A stretch of 64,000 bases of DNA, from assembly GCF_003334815.1 (NCBI RefSeq), contig NZ_QOWO01000015.1. The stretch is one strand, 5' to 3'. This DNA comes from Escherichia coli (GTDB taxonomy: Bacteria; Pseudomonadota; Gammaproteobacteria; Enterobacterales; Enterobacteriaceae). The notes below the pieces were generated by a model. The model ran no database searches. It was not told the origin of the DNA and saw only the letters and a program-made list of their open reading frames with translations. Both the position numbers and the translations under genes were made by a program. Of the stretch, positions 54,501-56,176 are shown one piece after another; within the stretch, counting starts at the first letter, position 1, and every line of letters begins with the position of its first letter.

Positions 54501-54550
54501 AATTCCTCCTTGCGGTCACAAATCTCCGTCGCCTGTACACGACCCAATAA

Positions 54551-54586
54551 TACTTTGTACAATATACGCTAAAATTGTACAAAGTA
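54551..54586. promoter_or_regulatory. Perfect 13-bp inverted repeat TACTTTGTACAAT-N10-ATTGTACAAAGTA upstream of bluR (candidate operator, or bluF terminator)
   Basis: Read directly; lies 51-86 bp upstream of the bluR start and about 120 bp downstream of the bluF stop. Confidence 0.4.
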
Positions 54587-54704
54587 TAAATAAGATTTCA
54601 GCTAAATTGGATGAAACATTATTTTTAATGTGGATTAAATTTAAACGTAACGTATTCATTTTCACGATGATTTACTGAAATCATGTGAAAGAATGTGCTG
54701 AAAA

Positions 54705-55916
54705 TTATTTTTTCTCTGGCCACGCTATGGAAGGGATACCATTCAATTTAGCTTTAGCAAACAGATCTCCCTGAAACATCTCAATTCCTGCGGATTCAAG
54801 CCACATCCACTCTTCTGGTGTTGCCACGCCCATAGCACTGACTTGAATTTCAAGTGATGTACAGCATTTTATGATCGCCTGAATAATTGCCTGCCGTGGC
54901 CCACTTTTATGAACATTGGTAATCAATTCCTGACTGATTTTAATTCTGTCAGGCTGGAAGCGTGACAGGAGTAACAAACCAGCAAAACCTGCGCCAAAAT
55001 GATCAATTGCTACACTGATACCAGCAGCCTTTAGCGATTTAATCGCTTCGGCAAACTCATCAAACCGAGATATGACTTCACTTTCAGTAAATTCAACGAT
55101 GATTTGTTCAGGCACCAGAGCATTGGCCTTTATTTCATTAAGTAAAAAAGAGACTGCGTCAGGTTCGTTAACCAGGGTCATAGGTAATAGATTGATTGAA
55201 ATCATTTTATCACCGAGCTCAAGTGCGTGTGCCATCGTGAATGCAAGCGCCTTACTTTTGAGATCCGCTGTGTAGATTTCCCCGTCTTTACGCTGCCCAA
55301 CCGCTATGGCTGATGGGCTATCTTCATTTTTTTGCACAATGGCTTCAAAAGCGATTATCCGCCGCGATAAGGGATCGACAATAGGATGAAAGGCAAAGTG
55401 GTCGTTTATAGTTGGTGAAAGGGCACAGGAATCAAGTTCTTTATCAGATCCGTCAGCGATAAAAAGCCAGGAGTCTTCGGCAGGGATCTCGAAATAGGTT
55501 GATTGTTCGGTTGCAAGGACAAAAGTACGAAAAAATTGTAGCGCTCTGTCATCATAAGTTAGCTGAAATTTTGATGTGCCTTTGTCGAATACGGCCTGTA
55601 AAACGTCATCTCGCTCGTGCAGGCGCAAATCAAATAATTCCATTCCCGCTTTGCCAAAACGGCGAGCAGGCGCGTAATCGCACAGCAGCTCAACAATATT
55701 ATAGTGCCGTGGATCCTGGCATATAGCCCGATATATCATTTTAACCTGTTCTTCCGGACCTTCCAGAAGCTGGAAAAAATGAGAACCATTAAACAGTAAG
55801 ATCCCTGTTACGTCAGACTGCATGTTCCTGCGATTTGCTATCGAAACCATTTCTTCGATTTTTTTGACAGGTTCGTCGTCACGTATATGGCTACGATAAA
55901 TAAGGGTGGTAAGCAT
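54705..55916 (-). CDS. bluF: Blue-light sensor BluF (BLUF domain plus degenerate EAL domain), 403 aa
   Basis: N-terminal BLUF domain (MLTTLIYRSHI...) and C-terminal EAL-like domain; start at the internal ATG giving 403 aa. Confidence 0.9.
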   Translation of the reverse strand: MLTTLIYRSHIRDDEPVKKIEEMVSIANRRNMQSDVTGILLFNGSHFFQLLEGPEEQVKMIYRAICQDPRHYNIVELLCDYAPARRFGKAGMELFDLRLHERDDVLQAVFDKGTSKFQLTYDDRALQFFRTFVLATEQSTYFEIPAEDSWLFIADGSDKELDSCALSPTINDHFAFHPIVDPLSRRIIAFEAIVQKNEDSPSAIAVGQRKDGEIYTADLKSKALAFTMAHALELGDKMISINLLPMTLVNEPDAVSFLLNEIKANALVPEQIIVEFTESEVISRFDEFAEAIKSLKAAGISVAIDHFGAGFAGLLLLSRFQPDRIKISQELITNVHKSGPRQAIIQAIIKCCTSLEIQVSAMGVATPEEWMWLESAGIEMFQGDLFAKAKLNGIPSIAWPEKK

Positions 55917-56153
55917 TAACAATCCAGGGTAATGGGTGAGGCGAGAGTAAGACGGTAACAGACATATCTTCTTGTGTCTTTCTTTTAATACCAAAACATA
56001 ACCGTTTCTTTACATTGATAAAAAATGGAAAAAGTTGAACACTAGTTGGCGAAAAATCTTGTATAGATTGTCAGTTAAATGATGCAATATGTTTTATCAT
56101 AACACATTGTTTTATATGCATTAGCACTAATCGCAAAAAATTAATTTATCATT

Positions 56154-56176
56154 CTGTACACATATTTCGTACAAGT
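56154..56176. promoter_or_regulatory. Candidate BluR operator in the ycgZ promoter (cTGTACAcatatttcGTACAAg)
   Basis: Imperfect inverted repeat sharing the TGTACA core with the bluR-upstream palindrome, 55-75 bp upstream of ycgZ. BluR repression of ycgZ is established; site assignment is inference. Confidence 0.35.

Follow-up and report, generated by a model that had tools for sequence, protein, structure and literature searches.

How is the level of a light-released repressor itself controlled? This question is raised by the bluR-bluF / ycgZ-ymgA-ariR-ymgC locus of Escherichia coli, analyzed here in a 64,000-nt stretch of contig NZ_QOWO01000015.1 (assembly GCF_003334815.1), which we call the window. 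The blue-light circuit to which the locus belongs (BluF, BluR, ycgZ-ymgABC, Rcs, curli, colanic acid) has been described as a simple anti-repressor switch with one operator. Upstream of bluR, the gene of the repressor, lies a palindrome that contains two copies of the hexamer TGTACA. Judged from its sequence, it very probably serves BluR, or the sister protein MlrA, as a site for the control of bluR, and we consider it reasonably probable that it is a BluR operator conferring negative autoregulation on bluR.

A palindrome in the bluR promoter

The spacer between bluF and bluR, 204 nt in length, houses the perfect inverted repeat ATACTTTGTACAAT-N10-ATTGTACAAAGTAT, the arms of which (54550–54563 and 54574–54587) are 14 nt each and flank a loop of 10 nt (Table 1). 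A sequence-only reading of the window had described a perfect 13-bp repeat at 54551–54586 just upstream of bluR. Its perfection and its location are borne out, as bluR, on the minus strand with a GTG start, follows directly downstream, while the arms prove to be one nucleotide longer. By length, the palindrome ranks second among the perfect inverted repeats of the window, and arms of at least 14 nt were obtained in none of 60 first-order Markov randomizations of it.

Searches for the box in this strain covered the 64-kb window, and those elsewhere the fetched loci described below. Taken singly, TGTACA is no commoner than expected in the window, with 12 copies against 12.5. Exact pairs of the hexamer 6–16 nt apart number two, against an expectation of 0.015, and none of 200 randomizations contained two or more. 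When one mismatch is allowed, the window holds four pairs, two of them in the bluR promoter, one at the ycgZ operator and one at 7036–7063; the last, TGTACA-N16-TGCACA, is probably a chance occurrence, since about one such pair is expected.

The two hexamers of the palindrome are 14 nt apart. A third TGTACA, which the sequence-only reading had noticed but placed at about 54527–54532, seven bases off its actual position, stands 16 nt from the proximal one. It is polymorphic within E. coli, two of six strains having TGTAGA (N31 and p11A), and it is missing in Citrobacter. This third hexamer probably lies outside the conserved bluR-promoter site and, because of the change in the two strains, is unlikely to be essential. 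A promoter-like match on the plus strand, TGTACA-18-TACAAT (54534–54563), points into the 3′ end of bluF; it is made of the same hexamers and is probably incidental.

Separate transcription starts have been mapped for bluR, bluF, and ycgZ by Tschowri, Lindenberg and Hengge (2012; PMC3509220), who located the 5′ end of the bluR transcript by primer extension 54 nt upstream of the start codon. A consensus scan revealed a candidate promoter, TTTATA-18-TATATT, that fits this published start exactly. The distal hexamer lies inside the spacer that separates the -35 element from the -10 element, and the proximal one between the -10 element and +1, its first T coinciding with the final base of the -10 hexamer; the arm on this side extends to +5. 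As would be expected of an operator in the promoter of a regulon gene, the palindrome overlaps the spacer, the -10 element and the start point of bluR, and a protein bound to it would exclude RNA polymerase.

Table 1. Features of the bluR-bluF-ycgZ region, with positions in the window
Feature	Position	Strand	Basis or remark
bluR (ycgE), MerR-type repressor, MlrA subfamily	53769–54500	minus	Pfam MerR_1, MlrA_helical, MlrA_C
Third TGTACA	54534–54539	.	about +16 to +21; TGTAGA in strains N31 and p11A; not in Citrobacter
Perfect inverted repeat ATACTTTGTACAAT-N10-ATTGTACAAAGTAT	54550–54587	.	proposed operator of the bluR promoter; inverted-repeat search, randomization, strain comparison
bluR transcription start	about 54554	minus	arithmetic, 54 nt from GTG at 54500
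Promoter-proximal TGTACA	54556–54561	.	about -7 to -2; kept in orthologous promoters
Candidate -10 element TATATT	54561–54566	minus	consensus scan; 18-nt spacer; 7 nt upstream of 54554
Promoter-distal TGTACA	54576–54581	.	about -27 to -22 relative to the bluR start; kept in orthologous promoters
Candidate -35 element TTTATA	54585–54590	minus	consensus scan; fits the published start
bluF (ycgF), BLUF-EAL anti-repressor of BluR	54705–55916	minus	stop codon 118 nt upstream of the palindrome
BluR operator of the ycgZ promoter, TGTACA-N7-cGTACA	56155–56173	plus	footprint and mutagenesis, PMC3509220
ycgZ, first gene of the BluR-repressed ycgZ-ymgA-ariR-ymgC operon	56230–56466	plus	open reading frame and PMC3509220

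Conservation of the hexamer pair

The bluF-bluR spacer is present in 4972 of 5426 complete E. coli genomes, at a median of one place per genome. In six strains picked across the range of identity, both 14-nt arms are invariant; the loop is changed in one strain, and most substitutions lie nearer the bluF stop codon. A dispersed repeat of the repetitive extragenic palindrome (REP) or bacterial interspersed mosaic element (BIME) kind and the end of a mobile element or insertion sequence were considered and rejected, the sequence being single-copy in each E. coli genome.

For comparison across genera, 16 BluR homologues were aligned, and the alignment was used to fetch 80 loci (666 kb of DNA in total) from bacterial assemblies with one genome per species; in each locus, the 140 nt upstream of the gene were scanned. 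Almost every locus has a TGTACA pair within this stretch. Exact pairs 10–16 nt apart are present in 55 of the 80 related loci and in E. coli itself, and additional loci qualify when one mismatch is allowed. The gap is 13 nt in 38 loci, 12 nt in six, 14 nt in four (including E. coli), and 10, 11 or 15 nt in six; a gap of 16 nt was met once, between the proximal and the third hexamer of E. coli. The end of the proximal hexamer lies 51–64 nt before the start codon, and in most loci 53–60 nt. In the rest of the 666 kb, outside the upstream stretches, exact pairs with a gap of 10–16 nt are absent. Pairs with a 7-nt gap occur 28 times in the same DNA and are carried by the orthologous ycgZ promoters, where the operator reads TGTACA-N7-TGTACA in nearly all cases.

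The 47 sites with a 13-nt gap give the consensus aagTTGTACAataaAAaAa...TTGTACAa, in short aagTTGTACAa...TTGTACAa. We also considered that the 13-nt gap might conceal a middle hexamer and thus represent two 7-nt sites, an idea that was discarded as the consensus displays only an A-rich spacer. The loci cover about 20 genera, and because the remaining intergenic sequence cannot be aligned between these, the TGTACA pair is, by this comparison, a clear phylogenetic footprint upstream of BluR-family genes.

The pair precedes not only the bluR genes linked to bluF but also those Pantoea and Erwinia genes that occupy the position of mlrA. The ariR-ymgA-ycgZ / bluF-bluR gene order is kept in Citrobacter, Pseudocitrobacter, Kluyvera, Enterobacter, Klebsiella, Atlantibacter, Kosakonia, Buttiauxella, Cedecea, Phytobacter, and Lelliottia, among others, and Pantoea, Erwinia, and Mixta have a BluR-like gene (62–68% identical) without bluF or ycgZ. 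In most Pantoea loci, another palindrome, TCTCATATATGAGA, is situated about 25 nt upstream of the TGTACA pair (3877–3892 in locus L012), between the mlrA-position gene and a divergent gene for a PuuR-like helix-turn-helix protein; it is probably the operator of this neighbor itself.

Some loci have a pair of another geometry, or none. Instead of the 13-nt-gap pair, bluR promoters of the Enterobacter cloacae group and Kosakonia cowanii contain TATACA/TGTACA-N7-TGTACA, about 53 nt upstream of bluR (L038, L043, L045, L048, L049, L051, L053, L055, L057, and L067). They thus have the spacing of the proven BluR operator at an unchanged distance from the start codon, so that the two geometries can substitute for each other at one promoter position. 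The loci that lack a TGTACA pair are in keeping with the general pattern. In the two Pseudescherichia loci (L016 and L020; 3935–4001), no more than about 65 bp separate bluF from bluR, and the two genes therefore seem to form an operon. No pair was found in the three loci whose proteins score as true MlrA (L078–L080; NCBIfam NF011617, 473 bits for L078), and enterobacterial mlrA genes, including that of E. coli, have no box upstream.

A scan of metagenomes for TTGTACAA-N10-12-TTGTACAA returned mostly unrelated sites. Among the matches listed, seven of 120 sampled sites lie 37–76 nt upstream of a MerR/LitR-like gene, and three of these seven genes encode distant homologues with 26–35% identity to BluR. 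For the two of these three that were compared with NCBIfam, CarH was the best match, below the cut-off. The scan is a hint of a family-wide association with the regulator's own gene, not a clean test of it.

Comparison with characterized operators

At the ycgZ promoter, BluR protects a TGTACA/GTACA element, and point mutations in this element abolish binding and repression (PMC3509220). The repression of ycgZ by BluR, which the sequence-only reading had taken as known, depends on this TGTACA element. The same reading had proposed an imperfect repeat with an N9 gap 55–75 bp upstream of ycgZ; the repeat exists, with TGTACA at 56155–56160 and GTACAA at 56169–56174, but the gap in that notation is 8 nt, and the distance from the ATG at 56230 is 56–75 nt. 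The half-site said to be shared by the two promoters is shared as a TGTACA element; the kind of repeat is not, its gap being N7 at ycgZ and N13 or N14 at bluR. Both sites belong to the same gene module, contain a TGTACA/GTACA element, overlap core promoter elements, so that binding would equal repression, and are kept in orthologues. They differ in the distance between hexamers (7 nt versus 13–14 nt), with each geometry separately conserved, and in the nature of the evidence: the ycgZ site has been footprinted and mutated, and the bluR site is predicted from sequence.

Compared with the known spacing classes, which are 12 nt for MlrA and LitR and 7 nt for BluR, the gap at bluR is 14 nt in E. 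coli, mostly 13 nt in orthologues, and 7 nt in a subset; the wide form is close to the 12-nt class and equal to neither. The MlrA box at csgD is quoted as AAAGTTGTACA-N12-TGCACAATTTT (Ogasawara et al. 2010, via PMC3509220), and BluR shifts this wide-spaced box in vitro, more weakly than ycgZ (PMC3509220). The box shares with the bluR site the wide spacing, the AAGTTGTACA flanks and recognition by a member of the same family, as the DNA-binding domain of this paralogue is almost identical to that of BluR. It differs in its gap (12 versus 13–14 nt) and in having one imperfect hexamer; furthermore, it lies far upstream of the csgD promoter, mediates activation, and does not precede the gene of its own regulator.

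The class II LitR repressors of Pseudomonas bind TGTACA-N12-TGTACA and are released by a LOV photoreceptor; for PplR1 of P. putida and PmlR2 of P. mendocina, the operator is given as T(G/A)TACA-N12-TGTA(C/T)A (PMC9758184). According to the same source, pplR1 is itself induced by light, which implies self-control of pplR1. Like BluR, these proteins are MerR-type repressors of the LitR/CarH branch that are associated with paired TGTACA elements over promoters, and both are removed by a blue-light anti-repressor, a LOV protein for LitR and a BLUF-EAL protein for BluR. The photoreceptor family thus differs, as do the C-terminal domain, which in BluR is MlrA_helical/MlrA_C, and the gap, which is 12 nt for class II LitR against 13–14 nt at bluR.

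Self-repression through a dyad overlapping the promoter is standard in the MerR superfamily. The arrangement proposed here resembles that of MerR-family and CarA/CarH repressors, where a dyad covers the promoter of the regulator's own gene or operon and the protein is released by an anti-repressor or by light. CarH operators are 11-bp direct repeats. Classical MerR operators are short dyads in a 19–20-bp promoter spacer that serve as a switch between repression and activation, whereas the bluR site covers -27 to -2, and repression is the only activity known for BluR. The analogy between CarS-CarA and BluF-BluR was already drawn in PMC3509220.

Predicted autoregulation of bluR

Starting from the observed sequence, promoter position and conservation, we infer which protein binds, in which direction it regulates, and the logic of the feedback. 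BluR would bind both TTGTACAA elements, which cover the core promoter of bluR, block RNA polymerase and thereby repress its own gene. Blue light and low temperature would activate BluF, which would pull BluR off the DNA, and the ycgZ-ymgABC operon and bluR would then be derepressed together. Newly made BluR would restore repression, limiting and resetting the response and keeping the level of BluR low. High expression of BluR is toxic (PMC3509220), which would provide a rationale for tight self-control.

Several points weigh against this prediction. In the only proven BluR operator, the gap is 7 nt, or 13 bp from center to center, whereas at bluR it is 13–14 nt, or 19–20 bp, and since these spacings differ, a rigid MerR-type dimer would be unable to fit both. 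The wide geometry is nearer to the MlrA and LitR boxes than to the proven BluR site, so that MlrA could be the binder instead, and in vitro the binding of BluR to the wide csgD box is the weaker one (PMC3509220). The overlap with the promoter is shown for E. coli only. In a CRISPRi screen of promoters, the guide against bluR dropped out. Finally, the searchable literature, outside the scope of which a 2009 Genes Dev paper falls, contains no report of bluR autoregulation or of this operator.

The spacing difference leads us to a tentative further proposal, which we regard as possible but somewhat doubtful: that there are two separately conserved operator geometries, with a 7-nt gap at ycgZ and a 13-nt gap at the regulator's own promoter, of which the wide box would be the ancestral site of self-control, taken along when a duplication of mlrA gave rise to bluR and lost later from enterobacterial mlrA. 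This proposal implies two modes of DNA binding. CarH-like proteins have loosely tethered DNA-binding domains, and such domains, or different oligomeric states, could span both spacings. It also implies a negative feedback loop that is released by light and resets the blue-light response. If real, the loop would set the level of repressor in the dark and the speed of shut-off after light, and would explain how BluR, toxic at a high level, stays low. More generally, a rule might hold for the family, with a TGTACA pair before the regulator's own gene, from the mlrA-position genes of Pantoea to distant CarH-like genes, and the contrast between 7-nt and 13-nt spacing would offer a handle on how an unusual MerR subfamily binds DNA. 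As feedback of this kind is ordinary, the finding would extend a known system by a small step and would introduce no new principle.

Alternative explanations

By sequence, the protein acting at the bluR box is by far most likely to be a member of the MlrA/BluR family, since the TGTACA element and the DNA-binding domain are shared with proven binders. The solved structures nearest in sequence to the DNA-binding domain of BluR are those of LitR (3whp) and CarH (5c8d). This domain is nearly the same in BluR, in MlrA of E. coli and in the Pantoea protein, and the three have an identical stretch of 20 residues in common. The near-identity also speaks for MlrA as a candidate. That the operator is used in E. 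coli by this paralogue, alone or in competition with BluR, would fit a gap that is one or two bases from the N12 of the MlrA box, with AAGTTGTACA flanks that match it (PMC3509220), and the same box before the Pantoea and Erwinia genes at the chromosomal position of mlrA, beside yehW/yehX. Yet the box travels with the BluR-like lineage and is lacking upstream of enterobacterial mlrA, including that of E. coli, and in some bluR promoters, those of the Enterobacter cloacae group and Kosakonia cowanii, its place is taken by the 7-nt-gap site of the BluR type. Moreover, the known role of MlrA is activation from a distant upstream position, and a place over the -10 element and +1 would make it a repressor here. 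We therefore favor BluR and hold control by MlrA to be unlikely; were MlrA the binder, bluR expression would be coupled to the sigma-S / cyclic di-guanosine monophosphate / curli control module. An overview of genomic systematic evolution of ligands by exponential enrichment (SELEX) lists BluR and MlrA only as family members.

Two further explanations would take the site away from the family altogether, and we judge both improbable, the RNA-based one even more so. Another regulator with a liking for TGTACA, such as the TetR-type RcdA (box TTGTnnACA), might act here, or the element might be without regulatory function in E. coli. Binding of RcdA to the neighboring bluF-ycgZ spacer has been reported, and the operator of RcdA itself, TTGTGTACAttTGTACACAA, contains TGTACA (PMC3535384); the context of the third hexamer, TCGTGTACA (minus strand, 54534–54542), is one mismatch away from the RcdA box. 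The conserved TTGTACAA, however, lacks the two central bases and so misfits TTGTnnACA, the hexamer that comes close to this box is the one that is polymorphic within E. coli, and the entries of the SELEX target table for RcdA considered here name the ycgF-ycgZ spacer, not the bluR-bluF spacer (PMC3535384). We accordingly discarded the palindrome as an RcdA box. A lack of function is hard to reconcile with conservation over about 20 genera tied to BluR-family genes. The inverted repeat might otherwise act as an RNA hairpin that terminates or stabilizes the bluF transcript at its 3′ end, with no protein bound. The stop codon of bluF, on the same strand, precedes it by 118 nt, and in E. coli the RNA would form a 14-bp stem of -18.7 kcal/mol with a z score of -2.4 relative to shuffled sequences; this fold is only modestly better than that of the shuffles. 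No intrinsic terminator is predicted in 54400–56300. The stem is A+T-rich, with two G-C pairs per arm and a 10-nt loop, and its tail, UAUUGGGUCG, has no U-run. Against the 14 nt of the E. coli arms, perfect arms in orthologues have a median length of 8 nt, just TTGTACAA, and range from 6 to 13 nt. It is the sequence of the hexamers that stays invariant, while the outer parts of the arms show neither conservation nor covariation, with no compensatory changes. The pair also occurs in Pantoea and Erwinia loci without an upstream bluF, the upstream neighbor in Pantoea being the divergent PuuR-like gene, and because the published bluR start lies within the repeat, the bluR mRNA contains part of one arm only. 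By this comparison, the conserved feature is the hexamer sequence and not hairpin potential. Termination of the bluF transcript, which the sequence-only reading had allowed for, is thus not borne out, and with no terminator, no covariation and a single copy per genome, the palindrome is poorly explained as a terminator of bluF, as a structured RNA or as a dispersed repeat.

A second sequence resembling the RcdA box, TTCTGTACA at 56152–56160, is likewise one mismatch away from TTGTnnACA.

Origin of the wide-spaced box

The genes of Pantoea, Mixta, and Erwinia (L012–L063) were compared with those of L078–L080 and L206. They adjoin yehW/yehX, as mlrA does in E. coli and Enterobacter, and on this ground are, by gene order, positional orthologues of mlrA. 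The Pantoea and Erwinia proteins are about 67% identical to BluR and 55% identical to E. coli MlrA, and MlrA and BluR share 49% identity. Because the wide box is also present at the mlrA-position genes of Pantoea and Erwinia, it looks, from the present sequences, like an ancestral self-site of the family, which bluR retained after the duplication and which disappeared from enterobacterial mlrA. A scenario in which mlrA and bluR arose by duplication was proposed by Tschowri et al. 2012 (PMC3509220), and the ancestral-box result agrees with it and supports it.

Other features of the window

In the region 50768–52444, icd is followed directly by an iraM-like open reading frame (107 aa, 52121–52444). 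In K-12 MG1655, this junction is interrupted by the e14 prophage, which appears to be absent from the present strain.

The longest perfect inverted repeat of the window is located at 57541–57576, past the stop of ymgC (57437) and ahead of the start of pdeG (57727). It has 15-nt arms, GTCAAGAATGGAGAG and CTCTCCATTCTTGAC, around a 6-nt loop, and stretches with one mismatch to about 57532–57585. The repeat is unannotated, is not followed by a T-run, and is single-copy in 4276 of the 5426 E. coli genomes; it could be a hairpin at the end of the operon or a protein site for pdeG.

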